64,000 nucleotides of DNA from an uncultured Pseudomonadota bacterium. Its GTDB lineage: Bacteria; Pseudomonadota; Alphaproteobacteria; Rs-D84. Shown here piece by piece: positions 15,755 through 64,000 of this stretch. Both the position numbers and the translations under genes were made by a program. Where the stretch lies: NCBI GenBank assembly GCA_902795435.1, contig CADBLE010000008.1:28028-92027 (forward strand). Direction: 5' to 3'. The first letter of the stretch is position 1, and each line of letters begins with the position of its first letter. The notes below the pieces were generated by a model, which worked only from the letters and a program-made list of their open reading frames with translations, was not told where the DNA came from and searched no databases.

Positions 15755-15813
15755 GTTTTGGATTAAACATAACACAGATAATTTATAAACATACTTTCAT
15801 TATTGGTATAACC

Positions 15814-15959: not shown

Positions 15960-15971
15960 AGTATCTGGAAT

Positions 15972-15998: not shown

Positions 15999-16066
15999 CA
16001 AAGGAAAGGGAGAGAACCCTTTTTATCGGGACGGACACAACCCCGCCCCAATCTCGTTTAACAACA

Positions 16067-19279: not shown

Positions 19280-22200
19280 TTAGAAATTATATCTCCATTT
19301 GATACGGCCAGTATGAGATATATATTCATCACGAACATCTAAATCATAATCTAATGTCCAATCTGCGTTATAATATCTCATTGTCAAACCAACGCCAAAT
19401 TCAGCACCAAATCTGGACAATTTATCACCAGATATTGAATAAGAATTTACACCTGGCATTGTGACAACTGCAACCTGATCATCAGACATAACATCATATT
19501 TCAACAAACCATGGAATTCAGGTGCAAATGAAATATGTGTATGTTTTGTATTGAAATTGCGTGTGTATTTTCCACCCAAAGTCAATGTCATATAGTCTGT
19601 ATCTTTCAAACTGTGTTTAACACCCAGATTGTTTTTATAATCATCTGCATCTATGTGAGTATAACGCAATCCTAATTCTGGTGTTACACCATTTGCTAAA
19701 TCATACCCAGTTGCAATACGTCCACCAAATGAATGAACATCATAATCAGATTTAACACCAATACCCAATGCAGAACCAGTTTCTGAATATTGAGATATAG
19801 TATAATTCAACACTGCATTTGCATACCATTGGTTTGGTTTATATTGACCATATACAAACATTGTGTATGAATCAATTTCTGTATCACGATGTGCAGAATC
19901 AATGTCAGAATGAGAATAAGAATACCCAGTTCCCACAGTGACAACTTTGTTAAATACACCGTCCATACCGATTGCAAATCCACGTGTATAACCATCAAAA
20001 GAATCTTTTTGATTTGTATAGTTATACAAACCATTTGCCCAGAAACCCGCACCTGTTGGTTTTATATCACCACCGGCACGACCAATTGTTGGCAAAGACA
20101 TACGTGTTGCAGCCAAATTACCAACTGTTGTTTGGACAGATGTTGCAACAGATTGAACAACAGATTCTGTTTCAGGATGAACAGATTTTGTTGCATCTTC
20201 AACCGCAGCAATATCATCCTTTGAATGAGTTGCTAATTTTTCCTGCATCTTGATAGACAAATCTTTCAATTGTTCTGAATCAGATGAAGCGATATTCAGA
20301 ACTGTATTTACAGTTTCTTTTGCTGCACCTGTATCTTCAACAATTTTATCTGCTGATTTCAAAGACGCATCAAAACTTTTGCCGTCTACTGACCATGTCA
20401 AATCAAACACAGAACTGGTTATTTGATTTTTAGCATTTGCAAATACTTTGTCACCAAATATATTATATGTTCCAACCTTTTCAACCGCGACACTCAAATT
20501 TCCATCACCTTCAAAAGATTGTGTTGCAGTCAAGAAAGCGTCCCCATCAGCAAACAAATCTGCAATCAAAGTTCCATTTAATGTAATGTTATTTTGATTT
20601 ATTTTTGCACTGCCTATATTCAATGTAGAGCCATCTGCAATTGTTAAATCACCAGCACCCGCAATTCCACCGTCTATTGTTGTAGTGCCGTTTGCGATTG
20701 TTAAATCACCGACATTATAAATATCGTTTGCAGAATTTTGTGCTTTGTTTCCAGAAAATTCATTTGTTCCAGACAAAACCAAAGTTCCCGCATTATAAAT
20801 CGCCCCACCATTTGCAGATGCTGAGTTATTTGTGAATTTAACATTTGATAATGAAATGTTTCCGCCAATCTGGTCTGTTGTCCCATACGTTTCGTTGTAA
20901 ATCGCACCACCATTTAATGCAGTATTAGAATTAAATGATGTATCTGAAATACTTACAAAACCAGAATCATTTTTATCATTATGCAAAGTATTATAAATCG
21001 CACCACCAAAATTGTCCGCATGGTTTCCGATAAATTTTGTATTTGCTATATCCAATGTTGCATCTTTATTATTACCCAGGTCCACAAAACGCATAGATAT
21101 CGCACCACCATTTGTAGCCGATGTATTAGAATTGAATTCAACATTTGATAAATCGTTCGTTGATACAGACCCCATAAATATTGCGCCACCACCATTTGAT
21201 GCTAAACCGTCAACATGGTTGCCATTGAATTTTGCGTTCTTTAATACTAAATCAGAGAAAGAGCCAATCGCACCACCACCGTCTAAATCGACACCCGCAG
21301 TTGAATTATTGATAAATGTTGTGCCGTCTATGGATAATTTGTGTCCTTTGTTTATCAATGTAGCCAAATAAATTGCACCACCACCATCATTTGATGAATT
21401 CCCTTCAAAAGAGCCCCCATTTATATCAACATTTCCGCGGGCAACCATCGCGCCACCCCAATCAGCACTGTTTTCAACAAAATTTACATTTTTTAATTTC
21501 AAAACTGAATTTACATCATGCTGGGCAATTGCACCAGAATTTCCAGTCGCAGTATTTAAATGAAATGATGCGTTTTCTATTTCCAGTGTACCCGCATTAT
21601 AAATCGCACCACCCTTGGTCGCAGTGTTTTCTTTGAATGCAAAGCCAGATGTTTTATAATTTCGTGTATCTTTTATAACCAATTCGCTTTCATTATAGAT
21701 TGCACCACCCATATTCGCATCATTTTTAGAGAAAGTAGAATTATCAATCCACAATTTTGCATTGCCACCATCAGAATCTGTCCAACCTTCTACAAAAACA
21801 GCACCACCTTTGTCTGCACGATTGGAAACAAATGTTGAATCAGAAACATAGGCATAACCTTCTTTCGCTTTGCTGTTATAGAAAGAATTAAAGAACGCAC
21901 CACCACGAGTACCAGCAACATTGTTAAAAAATTGGGAATATGTAATATCAACCTTGGCACCGGCGGACGAATTTGTTCCTTTTCCTGAATAGTTTGTATC
22001 CAACCAATAATTTATTGGACGTGTTGCAATTGCTCCCCCAACCGTTCCAGATTCATTGCTGTCAAAAGAAACACGATAAACGACAGTCTGGCTTTCTGAA
22101 CCCAACATCAAAGCGCCCGCCCCATCACCCAGATTCGCATAATTTGCAGTTGCTTTATTATGTGCAAATTGTGAATTAGAAACAAGACTGTTTGGTGAAA

Positions 22201-22552
22201 ATATTGCAACGGCCCCAAAATCGCCTGCGGTATTATATACAAAATAACTGCTATCTATTGATACAGAATAATTACCAGTTTGTTTTTTAAAAGCGGTCAA
22301 ACTGTTATCATATAATGCACCTGCGGCACCACCTGTGTTATTTTTTATCTCGCTGTTTTTTATAATTAATTTATTATTAGATAAAATTGCACCACCAGTT
22401 GCAGAATTAGAAATATCTTTTATCTGAACACCATCAAAAGTATAATCTTCTTGTAAAACCTGCCGTTCATTAATTTCTGTATAATCATCCGCCATTGCAG
22501 GCAACACCAATAATGCAGGTAATATGGAAATCAATTTGAAAATTTTATTCAT
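19280..22552 (-). CDS. Pmp-type (polymorphic outer membrane protein repeat) autotransporter
   Basis: Signal peptide. At least 12 FxxN...GGAI(Y) repeat pairs, e.g. FSKNDANMGGAIYN, FTNNSASANGGAIYN. C-terminal beta-barrel ends ...RIKWRYNF. Confidence 0.85.
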   Translation of the reverse strand: MNKIFKLISILPALLVLPAMADDYTEINERQVLQEDYTFDGVQIKDISNSATGGAILSNNKLIIKNSEIKNNTGGAAGALYDNSLTAFKKQTGNYSVSIDSSYFVYNTAGDFGAVAIFSPNSLVSNSQFAHNKATANYANLGDGAGALMLGSESQTVVYRVSFDSNESGTVGGAIATRPINYWLDTNYSGKGTNSSAGAKVDITYSQFFNNVAGTRGGAFFNSFYNSKAKEGYAYVSDSTFVSNRADKGGAVFVEGWTDSDGGNAKLWIDNSTFSKNDANMGGAIYNESELVIKDTRNYKTSGFAFKENTATKGGAIYNAGTLEIENASFHLNTATGNSGAIAQHDVNSVLKLKNVNFVENSADWGGAMVARGNVDINGGSFEGNSSNDGGGAIYLATLINKGHKLSIDGTTFINNSTAGVDLDGGGAIGSFSDLVLKNAKFNGNHVDGLASNGGGAIFMGSVSTNDLSNVEFNSNTSATNGGAISMRFVDLGNNKDATLDIANTKFIGNHADNFGGAIYNTLHNDKNDSGFVSISDTSFNSNTALNGGAIYNETYGTTDQIGGNISLSNVKFTNNSASANGGAIYNAGTLVLSGTNEFSGNKAQNSANDIYNVGDLTIANGTTTIDGGIAGAGDLTIADGSTLNIGSAKINQNNITLNGTLIADLFADGDAFLTATQSFEGDGNLSVAVEKVGTYNIFGDKVFANAKNQITSSVFDLTWSVDGKSFDASLKSADKIVEDTGAAKETVNTVLNIASSDSEQLKDLSIKMQEKLATHSKDDIAAVEDATKSVHPETESVVQSVATSVQTTVGNLAATRMSLPTIGRAGGDIKPTGAGFWANGLYNYTNQKDSFDGYTRGFAIGMDGVFNKVVTVGTGYSYSHSDIDSAHRDTEIDSYTMFVYGQYKPNQWYANAVLNYTISQYSETGSALGIGVKSDYDVHSFGGRIATGYDLANGVTPELGLRYTHIDADDYKNNLGVKHSLKDTDYMTLTLGGKYTRNFNTKHTHISFAPEFHGLLKYDVMSDDQVAVVTMPGVNSYSISGDKLSRFGAEFGVGLTMRYYNADWTLDYDLDVRDEYISHTGRIKWRYNF

Positions 22553-22652: not shown

Positions 22653-23375
22653 TTATTTTGCGTTTTTGCGCATATATAATTTTGTATATTCTTCTAATAA
22701 AGATGTTCTTAAAAAACTGTTATGAATTTTTCCGTATGTAAAACATTTATGATAATCACCAAATGAAGTTCCTTCCCAATCTATAAACGCCTTTATTTTA
22801 AGTGTCTTTTCATCCATCATAAAATTATACCACAAATCATTTTGGCACCAACCATGCATGAAAGACGGTTTTTCATTTTTATTTGGTTTCAAATCACGAA
22901 TCTCTTTTGGGTCTGCCGTTCCAATTTCATACAGAAATTTAGCCAATTGGGTTGTTATAATTTTTGCATATTTTTGTTTTTCTTCCTTGGTAAAAGATTC
23001 CAATGTTCGCCCACCAACAAATTCATATTTACGAACCGCCATATTGTTCCAATTTATAATTTCCATTTTTGGAATTTTTATAGAAGATATTGGACGCAAA
23101 GCATCTGTAACTCTTTTTTCGTGTTCTGCGGCTGCGATACCATTTGATTTTACAGGAAATTTAAACACAAATTTTTTATCAACGATAACAACGAAATTAT
23201 GACACCCATATCCAATCGCAGTTTTTATTTTTGGGTGTTTTTGATTACTGAAAGATTTTGCAAATTTCAACATATTATGCATTAAACGCCAATGATTCAA
23301 ACGCATACGAACACGATTACGTGTATTGTGTCCTGGAATAAAACCACAAATAATATTAACTATAATTTTTTTCAT
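22653..23375 (-). CDS. Phosphotransferase (APH/choline-kinase-like) family protein, tandem paralog 1
   Basis: QNDLWYNF (Brenner-like xNDLxxxN) and FIDWEGTSFGD, cf. LicA/APH HNDLxxxN...IDWE. The N-terminus ICGFIPGHNTRNRVR is common in polysaccharide-modifying enzymes. Confidence 0.5.
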   Translation of the reverse strand: MKKIIVNIICGFIPGHNTRNRVRMRLNHWRLMHNMLKFAKSFSNQKHPKIKTAIGYGCHNFVVIVDKKFVFKFPVKSNGIAAAEHEKRVTDALRPISSIKIPKMEIINWNNMAVRKYEFVGGRTLESFTKEEKQKYAKIITTQLAKFLYEIGTADPKEIRDLKPNKNEKPSFMHGWCQNDLWYNFMMDEKTLKIKAFIDWEGTSFGDYHKCFTYGKIHNSFLRTSLLEEYTKLYMRKNAK

Positions 23376-24110
23376 TTATTTGCCCTGATTTTTAAAATAA
23401 AGACGTGCATATTCTTCCATTATATCTACAACAATATATCTGTAACCAAATTTATCCCAATTGTGTGACGCGACATATAAACCATCTTTAAGAGTTTTGA
23501 ATTCAGTTAATTCCCAATCTATAAAGAAAGTTATATTGAATTTATCATCCAGCATAAAATTCTGCCAAATATCACCCTGGTTCCAACCATATAAAAATCC
23601 AGGTTTTTCGTTTTTATTTGGTTTCAAATCACGAATTTCTTTTGGGTCTGATTTTGCAACAACATATAAAAAATTAGCAATCTGTTTTGCAATATGATTA
23701 CGGTGCTGTGCGATAACACCTGGTTTTATATCGGTCAATAATTTCCCAGTTGCAAATTCATATTTACGAATATAAATGTTTTTATATGGTATAACCTTCA
23801 TCAACGGAATCTTTATCGGCGAAATTCCATAGAACGCATCAACAATACGTTTTTCACGCGCAGCAACTTCGCGTCCATCATTTAACAACGGAAATTTGAA
23901 AACATGTTTATTATTCAAAATCACAACAAAATTTTTACAGCCATACCCGACGGTTGTCTTGATTTTGCATTGTTTCATATTTTTAGCAAAATTACGAACA
24001 TAGCGAACATATTCACGTGTTTGCGGATATCGAATCATAGTGCGGACTTTGTCCCGCAAAGATTTACTCCAAATAAAACCACAAACAATATTAGAAATTA
24101 AATGACGCAT
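23376..24110 (-). CDS. Phosphotransferase (APH/choline-kinase-like) family protein, tandem paralog 2
   Basis: Colinear with 22653-23375 (QGDIWQNF, FIDWELTEF). Its stop TAA abuts the downstream ATG, giving TAAATG. Confidence 0.5.
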   Translation of the reverse strand: MRHLISNIVCGFIWSKSLRDKVRTMIRYPQTREYVRYVRNFAKNMKQCKIKTTVGYGCKNFVVILNNKHVFKFPLLNDGREVAAREKRIVDAFYGISPIKIPLMKVIPYKNIYIRKYEFATGKLLTDIKPGVIAQHRNHIAKQIANFLYVVAKSDPKEIRDLKPNKNEKPGFLYGWNQGDIWQNFMLDDKFNITFFIDWELTEFKTLKDGLYVASHNWDKFGYRYIVVDIMEEYARLYFKNQGK

Positions 24111-26996: not shown

Positions 26997-28232
26997 TTAC
27001 CCGTTATTGCCGGTTGTTGTTTGTTCTGGTGCACTGAAACGCCAGCCACGGAATGTTTTACCTTTCTTGGTTGCCGCTTTGACTGGGGTTCTGACGTCGC
27101 TGCCATATGTAGCGGTTCCGGCATTGTTTGCGGATATATCCGCTGCACTTGCATCCGACCAATTAATTGTAATTGTATTCGCTTCACATGATGCCAAACC
27201 ACCAGTTCCGGTTGCAGAACCGACCAACGCAGCACGGAACGCGAGGTTGGTCGGGTCCGAGTTATTCATGCCGCTCACACAGGCTCTAGCGCAGCTGTCC
27301 GCACAATTCGACGCGCTGTTGTAGCTGTTGTAGCTGTTGTAGAACACCCAAGGGGAGAGCACCGCTTGCAAGGTTCCACCATTCGGTGTATAGCCCGTCA
27401 CATTACAATAACAATTTGATGCGCCCTCTTGTCCCGTTTCGTCTGTTAAACTGCTTACAAAATGGTCAGATTCAAATGTATTATTATTGTAAGACCATTT
27501 ATTTGCTACACCACGTGTGCTACAACGGGCCTGACCAATCAACATACCCTTGGATGAACCGTAATCTACCACCCATGTGTTATTATCGCTTATGCCATAA
27601 TAACTTTGTTCTTGATGTACAACAACTTTACTGTCTTCACTGAAAGAACCGTTGTTGTTTATAGATGCACCCGCACCGGTGCCTGTACCAATTGCGGTTG
27701 CTAATTCACTGCTACTTATTCCTGATTTCAGATGCCATCCGTTTTCACAATCTGTTGCGCCACATTGGTTATTATCACCATAATAATAGCCACCCGTTAC
27801 GCCCGCAGAATGTTCTACATCCGCCGTTGTACATGTTCTGTAACAATCGTTTTGTGAATCAGAACCCGCTGCGGATAATGCGTATATACCGTCTGTCGCG
27901 GTGGAACATGAATTTATACCCTGGTCTGCGTTTTCATTATACAATGCATTTGTTAACCCAGGGCACCAAGAACCCGCTGGACATTGTGTTCCGTTTGTTG
28001 CGTCAGAACCAGCCGCCAAATAATTACCAGCGACGATATTATACAAGATATCTGTATATTCTGCGACCGCGTTTACGGTTCCCGAATATACACCGTCCAT
28101 ATTTGTTGATGTTGCCGCATTATCGTATGTTTTGTTTTCCTGCATATATCCGTTTGATGGAAACGTTTCCGCCATTGCAGGTAACACAAACCCCATTGCA
28201 AATGCACTGGTTAAAAATATATTCTTTTTCAT
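26997..28232 (-). CDS. Secreted Cys-rich surface protein paralog B, with C-terminal Flg_new-like domain
   Basis: Signal peptide MKKNIFLTSAFAMGFVLPAMA. The N-terminal block ETFPSNGYMQENKTYDNAATSTNMDGVY and the C-terminal block ASCEANTITINWS...GKTFRGWRFSAPEQTTT are shared with 16067-17281; the core is diverged. Confidence 0.75.
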   Translation of the reverse strand: MKKNIFLTSAFAMGFVLPAMAETFPSNGYMQENKTYDNAATSTNMDGVYSGTVNAVAEYTDILYNIVAGNYLAAGSDATNGTQCPAGSWCPGLTNALYNENADQGINSCSTATDGIYALSAAGSDSQNDCYRTCTTADVEHSAGVTGGYYYGDNNQCGATDCENGWHLKSGISSSELATAIGTGTGAGASINNNGSFSEDSKVVVHQEQSYYGISDNNTWVVDYGSSKGMLIGQARCSTRGVANKWSYNNNTFESDHFVSSLTDETGQEGASNCYCNVTGYTPNGGTLQAVLSPWVFYNSYNSYNSASNCADSCARACVSGMNNSDPTNLAFRAALVGSATGTGGLASCEANTITINWSDASAADISANNAGTATYGSDVRTPVKAATKKGKTFRGWRFSAPEQTTTGNNG

Positions 28233-38732: not shown

Positions 38733-38762
38733 CAAAAAAAACAACCACCAAATTGGTGGTTG
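38733..38762 (-). terminator. Terminator after Cys-rich paralog P1
   Basis: Stem ACAACCACC (38741-49) / GGTGGTTGT (38754-62) with flanking A and T runs. Confidence 0.7.
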
Positions 38763-38780
38763 TTTTTGATTGGTTTATTT

Positions 38781-41255
38781 TTACATCTTTACTTCTTTAC
38801 ATTCTTCTTCGCCATCTTTAACCTTGCAATCTCTATCGTTTCTGTTCCAACTGTATTTTCCGCCCTTCTTACATTCCTTGGTTGCGCGAGTTGTACAGAT
38901 TTTACATGTTCTGGTTGGTTTGTCAAAGTATGTAGATTTTGTTGTTCTAACGCCACTGACATCCATAGATTCATCCCAAGAAGCATCCCTGTCTGAACCA
39001 GTTGATTTCATAGAAGCCAAATCATTTACATCCAAACCAACACCAACATCATAGTATATTGCAAATGGTGCAGTCAAAGGTGATTGTTCTACAATACCCT
39101 TGTTACTTGATGACCCAGCACCAATATCTGCCATTTTCTTACACAGATATTCTGCTACTTCTGCACTAGAATCATTTGATGCTTTTTCTATGGCTTCTGT
39201 AACTTTCTTATTATAATTATCTTGTGCCTGACGCAAAGCAGACATACCAATCATTACACGATATTGATTCAACAATTTCGGGAAACGGGCTTCTGTTTGA
39301 TTTTTGCCATTCTTGTTATCTTTACCGTTGATTTGGCTCAAATCACGACCGTTGATACAATATTGGATTTGTTGGTCAGATTCAATCAAAGAAATTGTTC
39401 TGTTAATTGTTCCAGCAATGTTTTTCAATTCTTCTTCAATAGAAGAAATTATAGCGTCTGCATTAGGAACATTTTTATTATTTTTCTTGATTTCTTTGAT
39501 GTAATCTTGAACACCGATTTCACCAGGTTCAAGAACTCTTCCACCGTCTGTTACAGTACCACCAGCGTCACCCATTTTGATAGAACCAAATGAAATCATA
39601 CCAGTTACACGATATACGGTTCCATCTTTCTGGGATTTAACAGAACTTGTTCCGATATAGTTATCACTAGCAAAAGAATTACAATCTGTTGTTGAACCAC
39701 ACAATTCAAGCATTTTTTCTTCTGCTAAATTTTGACAGTTATCCAATGCCTTGTTATCTATGTTCAAATACAGACCCATCAACATAGAATCTAAATCAGA
39801 CATCTTGAAATCTGGGTTTGTTTGTTTACATACAACCAATTTATCAATTGGGCAAATATCATGTATGTAATCAAAATCCATACCTATACAATTCTTGAAA
39901 TCTTCACCACAACGGTCTTCGGCTGTAAAGCAATCTTTAACTTCTTTTGTACATGCATCAACACGCATAGAAGCCAATTTGCTTACAACGTAATCCCAAA
40001 TTTGTGGTTCCATTCTTTCGCATGGATCAATTTGGATTTTACAGAAAGAACGAGCCATATCTGGACGTGCAAGACATGCGTCCATTGTTGCTACACCCTT
40101 GCCTTCAATATCATCTTTACATGCTTTCTGGATACATGCAGAAATATCACCCAAACAAGATTGTCTTTTCTGAGATTCAATATTTTGTTCAGCCAATCTG
40201 ATTGTTGGTGCTGCTTCCCTTAAGAAATCGTCCCAAATTAAATCACGAACAGCAACGCAACTATCTAAAACTTTTTCACAAATAAAACGTTTTGATTCCA
40301 AAATACTCATTGTAGATGCTGTAATATCGTATGTATTCACAGTATCAATGCTTGTTCCTGCAACTGATTCTGCTTTATTATTTTGCATGTTTTCAGATGC
40401 AATTGTAAATACACATTGTCCCCAATCTGCACCACACGCGTCTTCGCTTTTCATACATTTTTTATATTCAACCATACATGTTCCACGATCATATTTGTTG
40501 GATTCTTCCAAACTTTCTTTCAAAGCATTACGAACCGCAGAATTTGCAGATGCTAACGCTGTTTTTGCTTCTGCTGTTTTTTGTTCAATACTGTTTGCCA
40601 AACCTTTACAATCTGAAACAATTTGACGAGAATACATCTGGGTCAACATTGTTAAATCTTTGGAACATTTGTCATCCATTTCAGATTTACACAATTGATG
40701 TGCCGCTGCATATAATTGGTTACCCGTCTTTGATGAAATATCTAAATCAAATTCTTCACCTTCTGATTCTTCATCTTCTTCATCAGCGTCATAAAAATTA
40801 GACCATTGTGTAGACGCTATTTTTGTTTTATCTTTTGTAGCAGTTGTTTGAACAACATTGTTGTTTTCATCATATTTTCTTGTTCCATTAAAGATAATAT
40901 CAGCATTTGCACCGGCCTGAACTTTTTCAACTTCTTCTGTGTTGATACGATCCGCTTCTGCTAACATTTTTTTGATATTTTCAAGATCGGCTTCATATTT
41001 TTTAATATCATCATTACAATTACAAGTTCCCCCAATTTCATTATCTACAATACAAAATTGGTCCATACATCCATAATATTGATCATAGCAATCTTGGTCA
41101 TATAAACCTTTGGAATCTACTTTCGCACGAACTTTTGTTCCAATAGAGATAGCCGCCTGTTTTTTTCCTGCCTTTGTCGCAGCAAAAGAATCTGCGGTTC
41201 CTAATAAAGCCCCAACAAATCCGAACACCAAACCAATATTTAACAACTTTTTCAT
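38781..41255 (-). CDS. Large secreted cysteine-dense protein, family member P1 (824 aa)
   Basis: Signal peptide MKKLLNIGLVFGFVGALLGTADSFA. Motif DCYDQYYGCMDQFCIVDNEIGGTCNC. Colinear Cys blocks shared with P2, P3 and P5. RBS GGGAGAG lies 17 nt after the P2 stop. Confidence 0.8.
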   Translation of the reverse strand: MKKLLNIGLVFGFVGALLGTADSFAATKAGKKQAAISIGTKVRAKVDSKGLYDQDCYDQYYGCMDQFCIVDNEIGGTCNCNDDIKKYEADLENIKKMLAEADRINTEEVEKVQAGANADIIFNGTRKYDENNNVVQTTATKDKTKIASTQWSNFYDADEEDEESEGEEFDLDISSKTGNQLYAAAHQLCKSEMDDKCSKDLTMLTQMYSRQIVSDCKGLANSIEQKTAEAKTALASANSAVRNALKESLEESNKYDRGTCMVEYKKCMKSEDACGADWGQCVFTIASENMQNNKAESVAGTSIDTVNTYDITASTMSILESKRFICEKVLDSCVAVRDLIWDDFLREAAPTIRLAEQNIESQKRQSCLGDISACIQKACKDDIEGKGVATMDACLARPDMARSFCKIQIDPCERMEPQIWDYVVSKLASMRVDACTKEVKDCFTAEDRCGEDFKNCIGMDFDYIHDICPIDKLVVCKQTNPDFKMSDLDSMLMGLYLNIDNKALDNCQNLAEEKMLELCGSTTDCNSFASDNYIGTSSVKSQKDGTVYRVTGMISFGSIKMGDAGGTVTDGGRVLEPGEIGVQDYIKEIKKNNKNVPNADAIISSIEEELKNIAGTINRTISLIESDQQIQYCINGRDLSQINGKDNKNGKNQTEARFPKLLNQYRVMIGMSALRQAQDNYNKKVTEAIEKASNDSSAEVAEYLCKKMADIGAGSSSNKGIVEQSPLTAPFAIYYDVGVGLDVNDLASMKSTGSDRDASWDESMDVSGVRTTKSTYFDKPTRTCKICTTRATKECKKGGKYSWNRNDRDCKVKDGEEECKEVKM

Positions 41256-41272
41256 TGTTTTCTCTCCCAATT

Positions 41273-43486
41273 TTACATGTTTATATCTTCGCAAGATTCA
41301 AGTTCTTGACAGAATTGTTTTTTACCACCAGATGCAGCACCCAATGCACCGGCACCAACCGCACCAACCAATCCACCAATGGCGGTTCCCCAACCTGCAC
41401 TGACCATTGTTCCAGCTGACGCACCAGCAGACAAACCACCCGCAGCTGCCTTTAATGCAGATGTAGCCTTGGATTCGCCACCTTCTTCGCAAACCTGTTG
41501 CATGCGACAAACATGACAATTACGCAAATTTGGTTCAAATGATACAGTATGGATATAACTGTAATTTGAAGATTTCTTTTCTTCATCTGGCTTTTCTGGT
41601 TTATATGTCTTCAAGCAAATTTCTTTTGCTTCTTCCAAATCTTTTTTACGTGCCAATTCTGCAATTTTGGAATCTAATTCACGCAAATTACGATTTTCAG
41701 CAGACATTTTCGCCAACAACTTAGCAGTCATAAACACACTGGTTCCCAAAGAATTTTTACCTTTTACCTTCTTGGTATCATCAGCAACACTTTGAGAATC
41801 CGCACATGCAGAAACAGTTTTATCTCTTTCAAATTGTGTAAAGAATTCTTCTACAGCAGCATCAGAATTTGCAACAACCGTCTTACGCAAAGCCATCAAA
41901 CCTTCTTCTGTATCTGGCAAATCTGTCAAAGATTCAACCGTTGCATCTATTGGCAAACAGGCCATATCTGTTCCACACACTTTTGACAATTGGTCACTGA
42001 AATAATTCACACAACCCTGCAACATCTGATAATCCATTTGCAAGATTGCAGATTGAACAATTATATCATATTGTGTTGCACCATTACATGATGGGAACAT
42101 ATCTTGTGGGCAGAGTGCAGCAATTTCGTACGGTTTTTTACCAACACATTCTGGTTTACTGAAATCTTGACCACATTTATCTTGCAAACATTTATCAATA
42201 TCGTTTTCACAGAACTTTGTTCTCAAAAAACCAAGTTTATCATTTATAACCGCTTGGAAACCTGGGATAATGGAATCACATTCTGTAATAATTGGACAGA
42301 TACCCGCCGCAACATTTACATTTGTTAAACATTCAGCATTTGTTGATGTTGCGCAACTATCTTCCAAACAATATTGTGCCTGGGCCAAACAAGTACCACG
42401 TCTGTGTTTATCAGCGTATTTTTCTGCATCAACCAAGATGCTTTTCATTTCCGCTTCCCAATCTTTTTTAACATAATCACGAACAGCCATACATTGATCC
42501 AAAACATTATCACAAGCATTAGAACGACGTTGTAATAATTTTTTATCAAGACAGTTTTCGAAATTAGTTCCACAACCACCCTTATCCGCAACGCACGCAC
42601 GATAAGCCAACAAACATTCACCACGGTTATATTTGTTTGTTATATCCAACATTTCAAGACGCGCTTTTCTAACCGCAGATTCAGCAATACGTTTATTTGA
42701 TTCAGCATTTGCTTTTTGATCTTTCAAATAAGCATCATAATTCTTACAATCTTGGGCAATCATACGTGTGTATAACATTGATTCCATTTCAGATTTAGAA
42801 CCACATGATTTCAATTCAGCAGAACAATATTTTACAGCCATTTTGTATAAATCATCACCCATTGTGACATCTTCACCAACCTCACCTTCATCGTCTTCGT
42901 CTTCTTCAGACCCCAACCATGCCAAGAAACTGGTTCCAGAAACACCCTTATTACCAGATTTTTCACTAAACACCAATGACGCTTTGGCACCTAATTGTTC
43001 ACGTTCTACACCTTCTGTGAATAATTTATCTGCCTCTGCTTGAATATCAAGAACGGCTTTAATTTTGCTTTTTGCAAGATTTATATTATCTGAACAAGCA
43101 CATCTTTCCCCCTGACTTTCGTCTAACAAACAGAATTGGTCCATACAATCACGATACGCATCACGACAATCGCCATTGCTACTCGCTGTCTTTGCCGGAA
43201 TCGATTCGGAAACTGGTTCTGAAACCACACTTGCATTTGCAGATTCTACATCAGTTTTTTCAACAACTGGTTCTTCTTCAACAAAATCTTCTTCCTCAGG
43301 AACTTCTTCTTTTTCAACGGTTCCAGCGACCAATGCTGCTTTAACATCAGCAGTTGTTATCGTCATACGATTTCCTGCTTGAGAATTTCTGTTCATGCCA
43401 ACACGTGCACTTGAATCAACACGTCCCGCACCAAACACAAGCGTTGGAAACACTAATAAAACCGGTAAAATATTTATTATTTTCAT
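41273..43486 (-). CDS. Large secreted cysteine-dense protein, family member P2 (737 aa), Gly-zipper C-terminal segment
   Basis: Signal peptide MKIINILPVLLVFPTLVFG. Motif DCRDAYRDCMDQFCLLDESQGERCAC. C-terminus AAGGLSAGASAGTMVSAGWGTAIGGLVGAVGAGALGAASGG. Confidence 0.8.
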   Translation of the reverse strand: MKIINILPVLLVFPTLVFGAGRVDSSARVGMNRNSQAGNRMTITTADVKAALVAGTVEKEEVPEEEDFVEEEPVVEKTDVESANASVVSEPVSESIPAKTASSNGDCRDAYRDCMDQFCLLDESQGERCACSDNINLAKSKIKAVLDIQAEADKLFTEGVEREQLGAKASLVFSEKSGNKGVSGTSFLAWLGSEEDEDDEGEVGEDVTMGDDLYKMAVKYCSAELKSCGSKSEMESMLYTRMIAQDCKNYDAYLKDQKANAESNKRIAESAVRKARLEMLDITNKYNRGECLLAYRACVADKGGCGTNFENCLDKKLLQRRSNACDNVLDQCMAVRDYVKKDWEAEMKSILVDAEKYADKHRRGTCLAQAQYCLEDSCATSTNAECLTNVNVAAGICPIITECDSIIPGFQAVINDKLGFLRTKFCENDIDKCLQDKCGQDFSKPECVGKKPYEIAALCPQDMFPSCNGATQYDIIVQSAILQMDYQMLQGCVNYFSDQLSKVCGTDMACLPIDATVESLTDLPDTEEGLMALRKTVVANSDAAVEEFFTQFERDKTVSACADSQSVADDTKKVKGKNSLGTSVFMTAKLLAKMSAENRNLRELDSKIAELARKKDLEEAKEICLKTYKPEKPDEEKKSSNYSYIHTVSFEPNLRNCHVCRMQQVCEEGGESKATSALKAAAGGLSAGASAGTMVSAGWGTAIGGLVGAVGAGALGAASGGKKQFCQELESCEDINM

Positions 43487-43617
43487 GTGACACATTCCTA
43501 CATTTTGTATTTATTTTATCAAAAAATATCAACTCTTGCAAGCACATAAAAATTTCTTGCTTTTTATTTTTATGATGAATAATATTATTCAAGTACAAAC
43601 AACTAAGGATTTTATAC

Positions 43618-43869
43618 ATGGCAAAAGATGATGTAATTGTTTTTTCTGGAACTGTTGAAGAAAGATTACCAAACACAATGTTTCGTGTAAAACTTGAAAA
43701 CGGACATGTAATTTTAGCGACAGTTTGTGGAAAAATGCGTAAAAACCGCATTTGGGTAAACGTTGGTGAAAATGTTCATGTTGAAATGACACCTTATGAT
43801 TTAGACAAAGGTCGTATCACTTTTGTTGAAAGAAGTCATTCAACAGAAACAACCCAAAACCACCAATAA
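43618..43869 (+). CDS. infA: Translation initiation factor IF-1
   Basis: S1-like fold: ...[52 protein letters not shown]. Confidence 0.9.
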
Positions 43870-43873
43870 TAAA

Positions 43874-43897
43874 AATCCACGAAATGTGGATTTTTTT
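43874..43897 (+). terminator. Terminator after infA
   Basis: Stem AATCCAC / GTGGATT followed by a T-run. Confidence 0.75.
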
Positions 43898-43969
43898 ATT
43901 TTTATTTTTTTGTAAAATACCCTTGCTTAAAACCACCTATTTTTGATATTATTATTAAAAGGTAAAGGA

Positions 43970-46336
43970 ATGAGGAAAATCTCTTTGATTTTATCAGCAC
44001 TGTTTTTGTGCATTGGTTTTAATACCAATGCTGCTGTTCGCACACCTCAATCCCCTGCCCGTCAATCAGAAACTAATGCACGTCAAACAGCAACCGCAAA
44101 AAAATCAGTTGTAAAAAATACAGAAACAAAATCTTCAAGAACAGCAACTTCTAAATCTGTAAAAAAAACTGTTTCTAATGTAAATCGTTCCGCAACAAAC
44201 AAAAAAACTGTTATGTCTAGAAATACGGCAAACGCATCTGTCCACAAAATTTCAACTGCACGTTCTGCGACAAAACAACAAAAAAGCAAAAACGCACGTG
44301 CAGCTGCCACAACAAAAACAGTTGCTTTCAGCGAACCATACATTGCATGTCGCGATGCTTATTTTTCATGCATGGACCAATTTTGCGCAACACAAAACGA
44401 AACATACAGAAGATGTGTATGTTCTTCTAAACTGACAAAAATTCAAGACACTGAAAAGAAAATAGACCAGACAGTAGATAGTTTGAAAGATTTCCAAGAC
44501 ATAAACATAGACGCAATTTCTAAAACATCTGCAGAAGTAAAAGCAATGGGTAATGCATCTGAAGGCGAAAGCGCTATGAAAAAAGATAAATCCAGCAGTG
44601 CAACTGCATTGAAAAATATTTCTGGGGTTCTGAATGACACAAAACAAAAATCATTACAAGAACCTGTTTCAACAAACAACAAAGCAATTTGGGGAACGAC
44701 AGATTTAATTGGCGGTTCTGATATTGCTGATTTAACTGGCGAACCATTGTATAATGCGGTTCATGCACAATGTGCAGAAATTGTTCAAGCAAGTTGTTCT
44801 GATTCTGATTTAAAAATGGTTTCGTCCGCATACGGTGTTTATATTGAAAACGATTGTGCATTATTAGAATCAGCATTAAACAATAAAAAGAATGCTACAA
44901 ATTCTTCAATCCGTTCTACAAGGCATCAAATGCAAGAAGCCCGTCTTGAAAATTATAATGCACACAATTCTTTATCATTAAACGATTGCATTGCAAAAGT
45001 CCGCGAAGATTTGACACAAGAAACCGCTTGCGGTAAAGATTATATTCACTGTCTGGATGTAACAGGTAAATATTTGAATATAACAACCGGCGAACCAATT
45101 TATTCCAAAGAATTTTATCAACTTGAAAATCAAATCTCGTTATCTGGTGATGTATTAAAAAATTCTACAAACAGTCTTGTTTTATCTGTATTGAACGATA
45201 AAAAAGCATTCGCACAAAAATCTCTTGATTTGTGCACAGACAATTCTACAGATGTATGGGAAGAATTTTTAAGACAGGCCATTGTTGAAATTTCCCAGGG
45301 ACAATTAAAGAGAATACAAAATGTTAAATCAGAATGTTTAAAGGTTGTAAATGATTGTTATCTTAAACAAACAGAACAAATAAAAGGTTTCTCTGATAAT
45401 TCATCTGAAATTTCGTTGGGAACAACCCTTGAATTATCCGAAGAAATGTGCAAAGAAAAATTGACCACATGCAGTAATTTATATGGTCATGGTTCAGATG
45501 GTCTTGAAATTTTAGTAAATACAATGAAAGGAATCACAGATTCAACCATTGCGCAAACATGCCCTGATTTATTAGATACCTTTATTACAAAAACATGTGC
45601 CGTATCATCAAATGATTCTAAACATTCTTTCCCATACGGATGTCGTGCATATGCACCGGGTGAACAACGTTATGCTGTGAATTCAATATGTAATTTATCA
45701 ACTATCAATCCTTTTGAACGTTCATCAACATCAACAATTGATGCATCATCATCAACAACAACCACAATAAATACTATGTACAATGTAGCAACACTTGTAA
45801 AATCGTTATCGTTAGTATTGAAATACACATATTGTAATTTCAATTATTATTTATTCTATTCTGATGGTGAAACAGAATGTAACGCTACCAACGAATGGTG
45901 TTATAATCAAACTAAAGCGACACAATGTAAAACATGTCCTACGGGATACCTGTGTATGGGGGGGCAAAACCCACCAACCCAAGGCGACCAAACAATAATA
46001 TATAAAAATTGTGGTGAAACATATATCGGTTCTCTTTATCATAAATTGGTCAGATACGCTTTACAAAACTGCGTTCGTCCATCCAGCAATTCTGGTGAAT
46101 TACCTGAAACACTGTTGGGGGATGTTGATAATGCGATGAAGAAAGTTAAACAAAAACTTGTTGCAGAATTATCAACAGAATGTTCTGACATGGGTGGTGT
46201 TTGGGTTGAAATTCCATGGAAAGATACCAATTCAGACGGAAAACATGACGACAACAAAGCGACATTATACGTAAAATTCTATACAACAACTGGTGCAAGT
46301 AATTTATGGGGATTCTGTGCAACACCGACAGAATAA
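43970..46336 (+). CDS. Large secreted cysteine-dense protein, family member P3 (788 aa)
   Basis: Signal peptide MRKISLILSALFLCIGFNTNA; basic Ser/Thr/Lys-rich N-region; motif ACRDAYFSCMDQFCATQNETYRRCVC; late CKTCPTGYLCMGG module. Confidence 0.8.
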   Translation: MRKISLILSALFLCIGFNTNAAVRTPQSPARQSETNARQTATAKKSVVKNTETKSSRTATSKSVKKTVSNVNRSATNKKTVMSRNTANASVHKISTARSATKQQKSKNARAAATTKTVAFSEPYIACRDAYFSCMDQFCATQNETYRRCVCSSKLTKIQDTEKKIDQTVDSLKDFQDINIDAISKTSAEVKAMGNASEGESAMKKDKSSSATALKNISGVLNDTKQKSLQEPVSTNNKAIWGTTDLIGGSDIADLTGEPLYNAVHAQCAEIVQASCSDSDLKMVSSAYGVYIENDCALLESALNNKKNATNSSIRSTRHQMQEARLENYNAHNSLSLNDCIAKVREDLTQETACGKDYIHCLDVTGKYLNITTGEPIYSKEFYQLENQISLSGDVLKNSTNSLVLSVLNDKKAFAQKSLDLCTDNSTDVWEEFLRQAIVEISQGQLKRIQNVKSECLKVVNDCYLKQTEQIKGFSDNSSEISLGTTLELSEEMCKEKLTTCSNLYGHGSDGLEILVNTMKGITDSTIAQTCPDLLDTFITKTCAVSSNDSKHSFPYGCRAYAPGEQRYAVNSICNLSTINPFERSSTSTIDASSSTTTTINTMYNVATLVKSLSLVLKYTYCNFNYYLFYSDGETECNATNEWCYNQTKATQCKTCPTGYLCMGGQNPPTQGDQTIIYKNCGETYIGSLYHKLVRYALQNCVRPSSNSGELPETLLGDVDNAMKKVKQKLVAELSTECSDMGGVWVEIPWKDTNSDGKHDDNKATLYVKFYTTTGASNLWGFCATPTE

Positions 46337-53791: not shown

Positions 53792-55867
53792 TTACTTGTG
53801 TATGATACCATCCTTTTTGAAATAATCATAGCACATTTGTTCCAAACTGCCACTGTATGTTGCATTTGAAGCACCAGTTGTTGATACTGCTGAATCTGGC
53901 AAATGTAAATTCCACTTTACATAGAAATCTTTCAAAGAATCTATGGTGTGTGATTTACCCAATGAAACAGAATTCAAACCATCACCAACCTTACATGTAA
54001 TGTTACTGCGTTCAATCAAAGCGGTAATACCTGTTGCCAAACCACCAGCGGCCGCACCAGTTACAGCACCGATTGCCAAACCTTTACCGATTTCAGCGCC
54101 CTTGCTCAATTTCTTTGTTGAACCAGATTTTATACCAGATGGAATAACCGGAGCAATTTCATCTAACAATGAATTCATTCTGGCCAATTCATTTTTGATT
54201 TGGTTCACAGTTTTGCACATACCATTATGATTACAGAATGGATTATCTGGACCTTCTACTGCAAATCCAAGCTGTAATGGAACAAATAAACATTGTTCAT
54301 TAAATGTACGTATTTCATCATTAGTAATTCCATTAGCAGAACCACATATTACAGAACCAGACATAACAACACTATCACCTTCTGGGGTTCTGATTTCCAA
54401 TTTTTCGTATGCAGTTTGATTTTTTGCACTTTCAACCATCGCGGTCAATCTGTTGTTTGTTTGATTTGATGTACAAGATGCAATTGCGTCTTTATAAACA
54501 TTAGCCTTGGAATACAAATCAAGTATTGCATTACATTGTTGTTTGTTCAAATTATACCAATTTGTTTCTGGGCCAAATAATTTGTTAGAAGATGCTTCTT
54601 CAACTTCTGCCAAAGATTTACCATCTGTACCTGTTTTCAATTTAACATTTTCATACAAATATGTTTTTAATAAACCTTGGTTAGAAGTAGAAGTTATTTG
54701 CGCAGCCAATTTTCTGCGGTATTCATCATCAGCACAAGGATTCAAATCTTTGTTTGCCAATTCTTCTTCTGCTGCTGCAGCTGCTTTTGCTTTCTTGTCA
54801 TATACTGCGGCACCTGCACCTGCACCAATTGCAGCACCCAACAGAGTACCACCGCCAACACCAACAACAGCAACTGTTCTGGTATCATTTAACAGAGATT
54901 TGAAATCAAACAATTCTTTGTTACATGTAAATGTAGAACCTGTCTTTTCCCAAACTTCTGCAGGATTATTATTACCAACTGCACCGAACAACCAACTGTT
55001 TGTAATCAATTTATCTTTGTTATATGCAGCAACACGAATTAAACATTCTGCCTTTGATGCGTCCCAACGTGCATAATGACCACGATTTCCATCATAGCCA
55101 GCAGTATTTACCATAACACCTTGAGGATTCAATTTAGACAAATTGCCATCACCAGATTTGTTGTATGCACCAACACCATTATTGTATTCTGTATTCACAG
55201 CATTTGTATCAGATACCGCTGCAAATGAAGAACCGTATGTATTTCTGTCAATCAACAAACAAGTATTTTCAGCCTGGTTAGGTGTCAAACCTGTTTTACG
55301 TAAAACGAAATTATAATATTCTGGTTGAACGATAGAACAATTGAAATTCATCCAAACATCAGCATTGGAAGAATAAACATTTTTACAATCAACACGAACT
55401 TCGCGGATACATTTATCAATTTGGGCCTGACATAATCTCATTCCACCCATGATAGAATTACGAACTTCGTCATTAAACATATCGTTTAAACCACCCTGTA
55501 ATGCACCACCATTGATACATTGCAAAACATCATCCATACACATAGTTGTTGTGTATGTGGAATTTTTTACACCACCATCTTCGCATTCAGGTGTTGGTGT
55601 TGGGGTATCAGGTGTTGGAACAACCGGTGTCGGCACAATACTGCCACCAGAAACACTTAAATTTCCAGACAAATCAATATTCTGAACCGCAGGATTTCCG
55701 ACCGTATTCAAAGACACAACCGGCATAGTTGGCATACGTGCAGTGTTTACATTTTGTGGCATCACACTGCGACTTGCACGACCATTATCAGCAGCATTTA
55801 CACCGCTGAAAGCCAGCATAACTGCGAAACTTGTAAGTGTTATTCCAAAATAATTTAATGTTTTCAT
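53792..55867 (-). CDS. Secreted Cys-rich protein P4 with two glycine-zipper hydrophobic segments (691 aa)
   Basis: Signal peptide MKTLNYFGITLTSFAVMLAFSGVNA; Pro/Thr linker PTPVVPTPDTPTPTPEC; segments VGVGGGTLLGAAIGAGAGAAV and GLAIGAVTGAAAGGLATGITALI. Confidence 0.7.
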   Translation of the reverse strand: MKTLNYFGITLTSFAVMLAFSGVNAADNGRASRSVMPQNVNTARMPTMPVVSLNTVGNPAVQNIDLSGNLSVSGGSIVPTPVVPTPDTPTPTPECEDGGVKNSTYTTTMCMDDVLQCINGGALQGGLNDMFNDEVRNSIMGGMRLCQAQIDKCIREVRVDCKNVYSSNADVWMNFNCSIVQPEYYNFVLRKTGLTPNQAENTCLLIDRNTYGSSFAAVSDTNAVNTEYNNGVGAYNKSGDGNLSKLNPQGVMVNTAGYDGNRGHYARWDASKAECLIRVAAYNKDKLITNSWLFGAVGNNNPAEVWEKTGSTFTCNKELFDFKSLLNDTRTVAVVGVGGGTLLGAAIGAGAGAAVYDKKAKAAAAAEEELANKDLNPCADDEYRRKLAAQITSTSNQGLLKTYLYENVKLKTGTDGKSLAEVEEASSNKLFGPETNWYNLNKQQCNAILDLYSKANVYKDAIASCTSNQTNNRLTAMVESAKNQTAYEKLEIRTPEGDSVVMSGSVICGSANGITNDEIRTFNEQCLFVPLQLGFAVEGPDNPFCNHNGMCKTVNQIKNELARMNSLLDEIAPVIPSGIKSGSTKKLSKGAEIGKGLAIGAVTGAAAGGLATGITALIERSNITCKVGDGLNSVSLGKSHTIDSLKDFYVKWNLHLPDSAVSTTGASNATYSGSLEQMCYDYFKKDGIIHK

Positions 55868-62310: not shown

Positions 62311-64000
62311 CTAATTTCCCGCAGGTTCTTTGTTTGTTATATGATACATTTTTTCAAAACTCATTGGTATTTCCGCTATTTCAAAGCACCAATTCTGATT
62401 TTGTTTGTCTTTTATGCAAAACTTTTTTGCATCAATATATGTATTGCAAACACTTGATTGACAAGTTGTTTCATCACTAGAATTACATACGGTTCCCTTG
62501 CCACTTGTCGTTTTACCGTTTTGGCACGCAACACAATTACCAACTGCGCCACTACACGCCATACCTTTCCAAGAATAAGTTCCCTGGACACATTCATATT
62601 TATCACCATTCATACAACAAGAACCCGCCGGACATTCTGTCCAAACATTGCTTTCTTGATAGTATGTATTTGCATCATCCACTACTTTAGCCAATTCAGC
62701 ATATGTTAAACACCATTTCAATTTCATGTTACTTGAATCTGTATATAAAGCGGTATTCCCACCACATGTTTCGCATTTAAAAGTGTTTGTGCTTGTATCC
62801 CACAAGAATCCCTTGTTATCTGAACATGGTTTGCAAGTGTGAGGTGCCTGGTCGGTTCCTATGTTAACACCATTAGGGCAACCTTGACAAACCGTTCCGT
62901 GTCCACCTTCTGTAACAATATCTACAATTTGCCCAGCAGTTGGATTAGCAGCAGCTTGACCACACACACAACTATTGCCTACGACACGTTCTATATCTTT
63001 GCATTGATGACAAACACGAATATTATGGTTACCATCATTGAACGTACTAAATTTTACCACTCTAAAATCTTCATATTCTGCTGAGTTTGTTGCTTGTAAC
63101 TCATAAGTGTCTGGATATCCATTTACTATAGAACATTCTGCATATTCAAAACCGCTATAATAACTATCTTCATGATTTTCTCTATATGTTACTTCTGATA
63201 CAATCTCATATGTTTTGTTTGAATTGTGTAAAAAACCCTTATTTGAATTATTAACACCTTTTTTTAAAGATACACATGAATTATTAAAGGTTCCATTAGT
63301 TTGCCCATTTACTGTTCCGAACGGACATTTTATCTTTGTTTTTCTATTACATGCAAAATTTTTCGGACAAGGTTGACAAGTTTGTTCCGAAAACCATTGG
63401 TCTGTATCACACTGTTCACATTTACCTTCTTCTGTATTAAAATATTGATATTCACCACAACAAACGTTTACATTTGTATCTCCAGCAGATACAGTATACG
63501 AATTATCACATGTTTCTACACACTCTTTGCTATCAAAATCATAATACCCACTGCAATAAGCACAACTGCCATCTTGTATTACTTGATAATCACCACATTC
63601 TAATTCACAAGAATAGACCCTTGGTTTTTTTATATCTTGTTTTGACGTCATTCCATAAATAGAACATTTAACACATTGACTATAGGATGTTCCTTCTATT
63701 ATTTGGGAAAATTTCCCATATCCTTTTTCATTATTAAATCCAGTCTCAGTACAATAGTTAACACACCTAGAATTATCATATTTTGCAACTTGGACAGACC
63801 CACACGTTTTATACTTATAATAATATTTCTCATTTCCATCTGAAACTTCGTCCGGCACTTTTCCAAAATCATTTTCACTGGTATATGTTATACATTTATA
63901 TCCCTCAGTATCTTCAACTGACGTTTCACCTGGGTGTTCGTCACCACCGCATTTCCGACATTCACCGTTTTCGGTGTCTCGCCCATATCCTTTCTTACAA
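62311..64000 (-). CDS. CxxC-repeat, extremely Cys-rich protein P6 (N-terminus beyond window edge)
   Basis: The ORF track starts it at a GTG (63858), but the frame stays open to position 63999 (manual translation: CKKGYGRDTENGECRKCGGDEHPGE...). Many C-x2-C modules: CQPCPKNFAC, CHQCKD, CQGCPNG, CKPCSD, CETCGG, CVACQNG, CPAGSCCMNG. Confidence 0.7.
   Translation of the reverse strand, partial: CKKGYGRDTENGECRKCGGDEHPGETSVEDTEGYKCITYTSENDFGKVPDEVSDGNEKYYYKYKTCGSVQVAKYDNSRCVNYCTETGFNNEKGYGKFSQIIEGTSYSQCVKCSIYGMTSKQDIKKPRVYSCELECGDYQVIQDGSCAYCSGYYDFDSKECVETCDNSYTVSAGDTNVNVCCGEYQYFNTEEGKCEQCDTDQWFSEQTCQPCPKNFACNRKTKIKCPFGTVNGQTNGTFNNSCVSLKKGVNNSNKGFLHNSNKTYEIVSEVTYRENHEDSYYSGFEYAECSIVNGYPDTYELQATNSAEYEDFRVVKFSTFNDGNHNIRVCHQCKDIERVVGNSCVCGQAAANPTAGQIVDIVTEGGHGTVCQGCPNGVNIGTDQAPHTCKPCSDNKGFLWDTSTNTFKCETCGGNTALYTDSSNMKLKWCLTYAELAKVVDDANTYYQESNVWTECPAGSCCMNGDKYECVQGTYSWKGMACSGAVGNCVACQNGKTTSGKGTVCNSSDETTCQSSVCNTYIDAKKFCIKDKQNQNWCFEIAEIPMSFEKMYHITNKEPAGN

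Follow-up and report, generated by a model that had tools for sequence, protein, structure and literature searches.

A 64,000-nucleotide stretch of DNA from an uncultured Pseudomonadota bacterium (Alphaproteobacteria; Rs-D84; GenBank assembly GCA_902795435.1, contig CADBLE010000008.1, forward-strand positions 28,028 to 92,027), hereafter called the window, encodes four Cys-rich proteins with export signals that we refer to as P1 through P4. The best explanation for these proteins is that they are four paralogs of a family specific to the Rs-D84/Candidatus Enterousia lineage. Judged by sequence and by predicted fold, this family is without a characterized relative, and its function is one that we infer. 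The four genes are functional, native, core genes under strong purifying selection, as evident from their preserved synteny and their low ratios of nonsynonymous to synonymous substitution (dN/dS). We tentatively propose, while granting the idea somewhat less than an even chance, that P1 through P4 form a scaffold in the cell envelope that is tethered to a membrane and consists of helical proteins with internal disulfides. Positions given below are counted from the first nucleotide of the window.

P1 is encoded on the minus strand at positions 38781 to 41255 (824 amino acids plus stop), as established by open reading frame (ORF) analysis and by orthologs that are 55% to 99% identical. It consists of a Sec leader (residues 1 to 25), a helical module with 29 Cys residues (residues 56 to 525), and a helical and beta-rich C-terminal part with seven further Cys residues. 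P2 (41273 to 43486, minus strand; 737 amino acids plus stop) carries AGGA 8 to 9 nucleotides upstream of its ATG at 43486, and combines a Sec leader, an acidic variable linker, and the 29-Cys module with a C-terminal glycine-zipper hairpin. P3 is encoded on the plus strand (43970 to 46336; 788 amino acids plus stop), and its layout includes a Sec leader, a basic disordered linker of ~100 amino acids, 20 of the 29 core Cys residues, and a C-terminal domain of its own. The fourth member, P4 (57066 to 59834, minus strand; 922 amino acids), was recovered by a six-frame scan of the window combined with the family profile. Its gene is located 13 kb away and directly downstream of rpoA-rplQ, a placement that is also seen in a relative (L081), and the protein shares the C..AY..CMD.FC signature and the colinear Cys pattern with P1 through P3.

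P1 and P2 are 26% identical over 473 aligned amino acids (E 1e-46), and the corresponding values are E 8e-20 for P1 and P3 and E 2e-12 for P2 and P3. These values are far beyond chance and therefore identify P1 through P3 as true paralogs, in agreement with the initial annotation of this DNA. That annotation had also described three ORFs of 737 to 824 amino acids that each begin with a Sec-type leader, all of which are present, and every motif string it quoted is found verbatim in P1 through P3. Its count of three paralogs fell short because the window holds four members including P4, and its term “giant” overstates proteins of 740 to 920 amino acids. No family members beyond these four were found when all window ORFs were searched with the profile. 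The N-proximal signature of P1, DCYDQYYGCMDQFCIVDNEIGGTCNC (C-x6-C-x4-C-x9-C-x-C; 41016 to 41093, minus strand), corresponds to invariant alignment columns. P1 contains two copies of a short motif, Cx6Cx6CGx5C (residues 260 to 281 and 435 to 456), and a profile self-comparison of P1 with hhalign detected no internal domain duplication other than this motif, which was not significant (E 0.15). Together, the four genes occupy 9.8 kb, or about 1.1% of a genome that is smaller than 1 Mb.

The initial annotation could not assign the proteins to a characterized family, and searches of Pfam, NCBIfam, PHROGs, PADLOC, PDB sequences and profiles, and Foldseek were likewise all negative. Specifically, the best Pfam matches for P1 through P3 (E 0.05 to 0.3) did not reach the cut-offs, P4 had none, and NCBIfam yielded nothing below 0.07. 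For P1 through P4, PHROGs gave weak matches only (E 0.002 and 0.009), located on the Gly-rich tail, and PADLOC gave none. Among PDB sequences, the best values were E 0.35 with phmmer and E 0.58 with an 81-sequence profile. The profile searches that the initial annotation had suggested produced no confident match, and structure predictions for P1 and P3 gave mainly helical models. An AlphaFold2 model of P1, built from an 81-sequence alignment, has a mean predicted local distance difference test score (pLDDT) of 69 and a predicted template modeling score (pTM) of 0.44. It includes long helices at residues 54 to 530, a helical hairpin region at residues 583 to 710, disordered linkers, and a beta-rich C-terminal domain at residues 734 to 823 (pLDDT 80 to 89). 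The AlphaFold model of P3 (132 sequences; pLDDT 74, pTM 0.51) reaches pLDDT values of 85 to 97 at residues 340 to 580 and 610 to 788, and its basic N-terminal linker (residues 15 to 118) is predicted to be disordered. With a Foldseek significance threshold of E ≤0.001, the P1 model had a best match in the PDB at the level of chance (E 1.9), and the P3 model gave best values of E 0.47 against the PDB and E 0.15 against BFVD, with template modeling (TM) scores ≤0.2. For both models, the matches were limited to chance-level helical or beta-hairpin segments.

Full-length homologs of P1 and P3 number in the hundreds. All of them are unnamed or listed as “hypothetical protein,” and they come from gut and rumen metagenome-assembled genomes (MAGs) labeled Alphaproteobacteria or Candidatus Enterousia. 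When each GTDB species was represented by a single genome, at least 572 relatives were found, and a profile search of 1.84 billion representatives at 50% identity returned 1025 clusters with a cut-off of E ≤1e-3 and 537 with a cut-off of E ≤1e-30. The annotations of 10 distant cluster representatives were uninformative, and the names that were present read only “hypothetical protein [Proteobacteria bacterium].” The best 80 of the at least 572 species-level loci belong to Enterousia-type MAGs of cattle, sheep, yak, deer, horse, chicken, rabbit, and humans. Wherever the flank extends far enough in these 80 loci, the gene order P3(-) infA(-) P2(+) P1(+) is preserved without exception, and P1 immediately follows P2 in 79 of the 80. 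The outer flanks, clpX-clpP-pgk and BOF-OMP-M23, are retained only in closer relatives. Two contigs whose record titles read “Muribaculaceae” and “Bacteroides fragilis” (L055 and L069, respectively) carry a complete Enterousia-type P3-infA-P2-P1 locus, and are probably mis-binned contigs in public MAGs.

Sequence conservation was assessed in the 25 loci that hold all of the genes compared. Mean identity to the window is 85% for infA, 87% for clpX, 84% for clpP, 65% for pgk, 66% for P1, 69% for P2, and 53% for P3. Pairwise dN/dS values between close species are 0.04 to 0.07 for P1 and 0.04 to 0.08 for P2, compared to 0.03 to 0.09 for clpX, and the values for P3 are 0.10 to 0.22 overall and 0.03 to 0.09 in its core. 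The initial annotation considered the family native rather than recently acquired because its base composition matches that of surrounding genes. This view is upheld by a GC content of 0.35 to 0.37 for P1 through P3, equal to that of the flanks, and by the synteny and the dN/dS values of P1 and P2 described above. Recent horizontal acquisition was rejected on these same grounds of composition and synteny, whereas pseudogenes were rejected by the purifying selection, and phage or defense genes were rejected given the lack of matching families in PHROGs and PADLOC. Furthermore, the share of the genome devoted to the family (~1%), the infA and rpoA-rplQ neighborhoods, and a degree of conservation like that of glycolytic enzymes mark the function of P1 through P4 as core and lineage defining.

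P1 and P2 each have 36 Cys residues, P3 has 31 (one in the leader), and P4 has 39 (one in the leader). Conservation of the Cys positions among orthologs, on which the initial annotation had made its own reading depend, speaks strongly in its favor. In 80 orthologs, each of the 36 Cys residues of P1, and likewise of P2, shows ≥99% conservation, compared to 59% to 61% for other residues. Among 116 orthologs of P4, conservation is 100% for the 29 core Cys residues and averages 36% for other residues. The 29-Cys module is common to P1, P2, and P4, and P3 retains 20 of its positions. When counted from the first conserved Cys onward, the mature Cys total is even in all 81 P1, all 69 P2, and 105 of 107 P4 sequences, even as the totals for P4 vary among 34, 36, 38, 40, 42, 44, and 46. 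The P3 total also changes by steps of two (29, 31, 33, 35, 37, 39) and is odd in 54 of 67 orthologs, and the P3 protein of the window itself has 30 mature Cys residues. Moreover, adjacent Cys residues with a spacing of exactly seven residues number 10 in P1, 8 in P2, 5 in P3, and 12 in P4, where ~1.2 such pairs are expected and the maximum in 5000 random placements was 7. A bias toward even numbers of Cys residues, along with their gain and loss in pairs, is an accepted sign of disulfide formation in exported proteins (PMC2823432), and from these patterns we infer that the Cys residues of P1 through P4 form disulfides.

The same counts bear on the partners of these bonds. The initial annotation had suggested a disulfide-cross-linked layer or adhesin set, which is only plausible. 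In the first of these forms, P1 through P4 might be bonded to each other or to outer-membrane proteins, creating an intermolecularly cross-linked shell like the chlamydial complex or Cys-rich spore layers. Most P3 orthologs have an odd count, which points to one Cys without a partner that might be available for an intermolecular bond, many other exported proteins encoded in the window and at related loci are Cys rich, and the C. difficile exosporium protein CdeC provides a precedent from a gut anaerobe. However, the even counts in 255 of 257 P1, P2, and P4 sequences are most simply explained by internal pairing, and cross-links between molecules are not required. In addition, there is no homology to OmcA/OmcB, CdeC, or CotY, and because the host retains rod-shape and peptidoglycan genes, a substitute for peptidoglycan would not be needed. 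We therefore regard such a shell as improbable.

A role that does not involve disulfides is considerably harder to reconcile with these data. The Cys residues might instead serve as ligands for Cu(I), Zn, Fe, or sulfur, or scavenge oxidants, in the manner of Csp-like copper storage proteins. The alignment of Cys residues on helix faces at i,i+7 would fit this idea, as would an anaerobic host and a window in which no oxidizing machinery was seen. Yet strict even parity and the paired gain and loss of Cys residues are unexpected for metal ligands, and the Cys density is 4% to 5%, which is far below that of metal-storage proteins. The core also lacks ligand-type motifs (CxxC or CxxCH), and Pfam gave no match. 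Thiolate metal, sulfur, or redox-buffer proteins seem highly improbable. Heme or Fe-S binding was rejected separately, as no CxxCH or ferredoxin motifs are present.

All four proteins carry Sec-type leaders, which were identified by direct reading of the n, h, and c regions, the small-x-small motif, and hydropathy. The leaders of P1 through P3 have a basic n-region and a hydrophobic core (Kyte-Doolittle values of 1.7 to 2.1 over 19 residues), and cleavage-type sites of the form A/G-x-A/G are found as SFA|A, VFG|A, and TNA|A in P1, P2, and P3, respectively. No canonical lipobox occurs in P1 through P4. The P1 and P2 leaders are without Cys, and the leader Cys residues of P3 and P4, which are conserved in 39% and 70% of orthologs, respectively, are both in noncanonical contexts.

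P2 additionally ends in a glycine-zipper hydrophobic tail, as the initial annotation had observed, and this tail is nearly invariant in 79 orthologs. The zipper segment (residues 679 to 721; 41324 to 41452, minus strand) is 72% Gly/Ala/Ser over 43 residues, five GxxxG motifs lie within the C-terminal 67 residues, and the hydrophobicity is moderate, with a Kyte-Doolittle maximum of 1.46 versus 2.13 for the signal peptide. Fourteen residues, including two Cys, follow the hydrophobic segment. The last ~75 residues are conserved far above the rest of P2, with the consensus string QQVCE.GGESK...AAGGLSAGA.AGTM..GWGTAIGG.VGAVG.G..G...GG..FCQEIESCEDINM, and the extreme C-terminal tail, FCQELESCEDINM (41276 to 41314, minus strand), is part of this nearly invariant region. 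P1 terminates in a related C...CxExxM tail and shares the Cys-flanked C-terminal frame of P2 (R.C..C...C..GG ... C....C.E..M) without the zipper insert. Weakly hydrophobic transmembrane glycine-zipper hairpins insert SlyB and YfgH into the outer membrane (bioRxiv 10.64898/2025.12.22.696046). By analogy, the C-terminal hairpin of P2 would be a membrane tether, most likely held in the outer membrane. No NCBIfam match to the sorting-domain models PEP-CTERM, GlyGly-CTERM, or MYXO-CTERM was observed for P2.

These features can be assembled into the scaffold proposed above. Each of the four proteins would be exported by the Sec pathway and would fold into a largely alpha-helical body with ~15 to 19 internal disulfides, many of them involving cysteines that recur at seven-residue intervals along helices. 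A single two-gene operon would give rise to P2 and P1, with P2 tethered by its hairpin and P1, which has no anchor, probably docking on P2. This pairing of P1 with P2 is made likely by their co-expression from a single operon and by a shared architecture that differs in the absence of the anchor. P3 and P4 are the faster-evolving members, with variable C-terminal parts. Together, the proteins might serve a structural role as a rigid scaffold that withstands proteases and stress in the envelope of reduced-genome gut bacteria. It is also conceivable, although we consider this more specific idea rather doubtful, that the disulfide-stapled helical proteins form a glycine-zipper-anchored hetero-oligomeric lattice, which would constitute an unknown envelope structure serving as rigid armor and/or as a docking surface for partner cells.

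Several observations weigh against the scaffold proposal. The P1 and P3 models are of moderate confidence only (pLDDT 69 and 74, pTM 0.44 and 0.51). A Pfam scan of the isolated P2 zipper matched no glycine-zipper family even at E ≤10, and P2 is without a lipobox, unlike SlyB and YfgH, so the likeness of its tail to these proteins is functional and does not indicate family membership. The 64-kb window holds no gene of the Dsb, VKOR, or thioredoxin type, and the host is described as strictly fermentative and without a respiratory chain (PMC12306168), which leaves no evident oxidant for ~18 disulfides per protein. Lastly, the most conserved stretch of P1 (residues 361 to 510; 39726 to 40175, minus strand; 80% to 91% mean identity in 80 species) could equally well represent a binding or catalytic site as a purely structural element.

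The biology of the host suggests two other roles. Rs-D84 bacteria have genomes of ~0.75 to 1.0 Mb, are fermentative, and are without a tricarboxylic acid cycle or respiratory chain (PMC12306168). They also do not have standard sugar, amino-acid, or peptide transporters, are probably partner dependent, and have been proposed to interact with other cells through unknown membrane proteins (PMC12306168). Their presence in flagellate-free termites as well (PMC11257099) indicates that they are not simply protist endosymbionts. None of the publications drawn on here describes a cultured Rs-D84/Enterousia representative.

Given the missing transporters, the long helical proteins might span the periplasm as a trans-envelope conduit or uptake machine that imports metabolites. 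Long helices, a putative membrane-inserting hairpin, and the very highly conserved internal region of P1 are all compatible with this possibility. However, neither Pfam nor Foldseek relates the proteins to MCE, TolC, AsmA, or Tol systems, and the locus has no conserved partner ATPase or inner-membrane component. Thus, we find a conduit quite unlikely.

The proposed partner dependence could alternatively mean that P1 through P4 act as an adhesin or partner-recognition complex displayed on the cell surface. Its variable parts (P3 residues 575 to 690, most of P4, and the P1 C-terminus) would attach to the host or partner cell that these metabolically dependent bacteria need, and disulfides would confer resistance to gut proteases. 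The hypervariable region of P3 (residues 575 to 690; 45692 to 46039, plus strand) is rich in indels, with identity of 0.16 to 0.38, gaps of ≤0.38, and a variable number of Cys pairs that are gained or lost, and its dN/dS is 0.3 to 0.4. P4 evolves much faster than P1 within the same genomes, at 35% to 48% identity where P1 is at 65% to 70%, and the window also encodes an autotransporter with Chlam_PMP repeats and several other Cys-rich secreted proteins. Nevertheless, no outer-membrane route is evident, as there is no autotransporter or two-partner domain and no lipobox, and NCBIfam and Pfam reveal no sorting signal. P1 and P2 are conserved like a glycolytic enzyme, which is unusual for exposed adhesins, and dN/dS never exceeds 1, with the variable region of P3 included, so positive selection was not detected. 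On balance, an adhesin is a possibility that we consider unlikely.

If the disulfide-stapled lattice does exist, then oxidative folding without a respiratory chain would imply an unrecognized oxidizing source in a strict anaerobe. The ~18 disulfides per molecule would pose a physiological puzzle in a fermentative organism, just as a 29-Cys helical module with cysteines seven residues apart and no solved fold poses a puzzle for protein science. Rs-D84/Enterousia bacteria are widespread in the guts of humans, livestock, birds, and termites. The family would lend itself to use as a specific marker and antigen for the clade.

The arrangement of genes and signals at the locus looks like a two-gene P2-P1 operon with P3 as a separate unit. 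The P2 stop codon (TAA, 41273 to 41275) is followed by a 17-nucleotide spacer (41256 to 41272, minus strand) and then the P1 ATG. The initial annotation had noted this spacing together with a ribosome-binding site, and the spacer indeed contains a Shine-Dalgarno-like GGGAGAG at 41262 to 41268. The intergenic region between the divergent P2 and infA genes contains, ahead of P2, sigma-70-like hexamers with a TG element (TTGCAA-17-TAAAAT; 43513 to 43541, minus strand), a candidate promoter judged solely by consensus. Located 14 nucleotides past the P1 stop, a hairpin of 14 bp followed by a T-run (38737 to 38767) is likely a bidirectional terminator for P2-P1. Between P2 and P3 lies infA, encoding translation initiation factor IF-1 (43618 to 43869, plus strand), which is followed by its own hairpin terminator (43871 to 43895), and another hairpin terminator follows P3 (46341 to 46382). 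The spacer, the P2 promoter match, and the hairpins after P1, infA, and P3 together suggest the transcription units described above. The only promoter-like hexamers found before P3 sit unconvincingly close to its start codon. A search of the whole window with Rfam identified one tRNA only, and thus no riboswitch or leader RNA at the locus. The neighboring genes are envelope genes that encode an EnvC-like M23 peptidase, an Opacity-like beta-barrel, and a BOF protein, a context in keeping with the proposed envelope scaffold.

The window contains additional genes for Cys-rich and envelope proteins, all on the minus strand. The autotransporter mentioned above (19280 to 22552; 1090 amino acids) matches Chlam_PMP repeats (Pfam, 2e-18) and the Autotransporter beta-domain (9e-30), and a similar gene is found beside the P3 locus in a distant relative (L034, 749 to 3919). 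Also beside the locus in L034 are genes for a Cys-rich secreted repeat protein of 720 amino acids with a C-terminal hydrophobic segment (14131 to 16293) and a Cys-rich secreted protein of 254 amino acids (3996 to 4760). Just upstream of rpoA, an ORF that is open at the window end (62311 to 63999) is 8.5% Cys with CxxC-type repeats. Its ortholog in L081 (7031 to 7990) is located between rpsK and rpoA, the usual position of rpsD, and gives weak or faint matches to Ephrin_rec_like and TNFR. This appears to be a eukaryote-like Cys-rich repeat gene embedded in a ribosomal (alpha) operon.

Syntenic with P4 is a gene for a 691-amino-acid secreted protein (53792 to 55867) with 19 Cys residues and glycine-zipper-like hydrophobic segments at residues 329 to 355 and 593 to 619. 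It has a counterpart in L081 (14302 to 16317) and no Pfam match. This protein and the other Cys-rich window ORFs were considered as family members and were rejected by the profile search. Two secreted Cys-containing paralogs of 404 and 411 amino acids (16067 to 17281 and 26997 to 28232) are 50% identical (E 3e-121) and are almost identical over the C-terminal 60 amino acids (CEANTITINWS...KGKTF.GWRFSAPEQTTT), with no Pfam match for either. A 273-amino-acid secreted protein (2709 to 3530) with 7 Cys residues, a Gly-rich C-terminus, and no Pfam match is encoded next to an OmpA-family lipoprotein-like protein (1221 to 2642) whose C-terminal sequence is ECEDCEK, which indicates that Cys-rich tails recur in envelope proteins of this host. 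Finally, tandem paralogs of ~240 amino acids are encoded at 22653 to 23375 and 23376 to 24110, the former with a weak match to APH (phosphotransferase) below the Pfam cut-off.

Several known systems provide useful comparisons for P1 through P4. Cysteine-rich keratins are described as alpha-helical structural proteins hardened by disulfides (PMC7086170). These proteins are eukaryotic and cytoplasmic, have no homology to P1 through P4, and have cross-links that are mainly intermolecular. The copper storage proteins Csp1 and Csp3 are helical bundles with many Cys residues lined along the helices. P1 through P4 have no profile match to them and a several-fold lower Cys density, and their paired gain and loss of Cys residues points to disulfides. 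The Cys-rich exosporium protein CdeC of the obligate gut anaerobe C. difficile is reported to self-assemble (PMC7677010). CdeC and CdeM, along with CotY and ExsY of Bacillus, are Cys rich like P1 through P4 and build robust extracellular layers. However, those proteins come from Firmicute spores and are unrelated in sequence, whereas P1 through P4 belong to a nonsporulating diderm. The tail of P2 is GxxxG rich, weakly hydrophobic, and two-part like those of SlyB, YfgH, Pcp, and the Rickettsia 17-kDa antigen, and differs from the SlyB/YfgH type in having the zipper at the C-terminus, between Cys pairs, and joined to a Cys-rich body of 670 amino acids.

The chlamydial complex of OmcB and OmcA with MOMP shares with P1 through P4 the retention of Sec-exported, Cys-rich envelope proteins in a strongly reduced genome. 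As in the present host, it co-occurs with a Pmp-type (Chlam_PMP repeat) autotransporter, and its disulfides are thought to stiffen the envelope. P1 through P4 have no sequence or profile similarity to OmcA/OmcB in Pfam, and they are predicted to be alpha-helical, whereas OmcB is beta-rich. Likewise, their even Cys parity suggests internal bonds, and the host keeps its peptidoglycan and rod-shape genes. The Helicobacter Hcp and Sel1-like proteins are secreted helical proteins whose helix pairs are stapled by conserved disulfides. P1 through P4 are much larger, with no Sel1 profile match and no regular 36-amino-acid repeat, but they resemble these proteins in being secreted, helical, and, as far as the Cys patterns suggest, stapled by disulfides.

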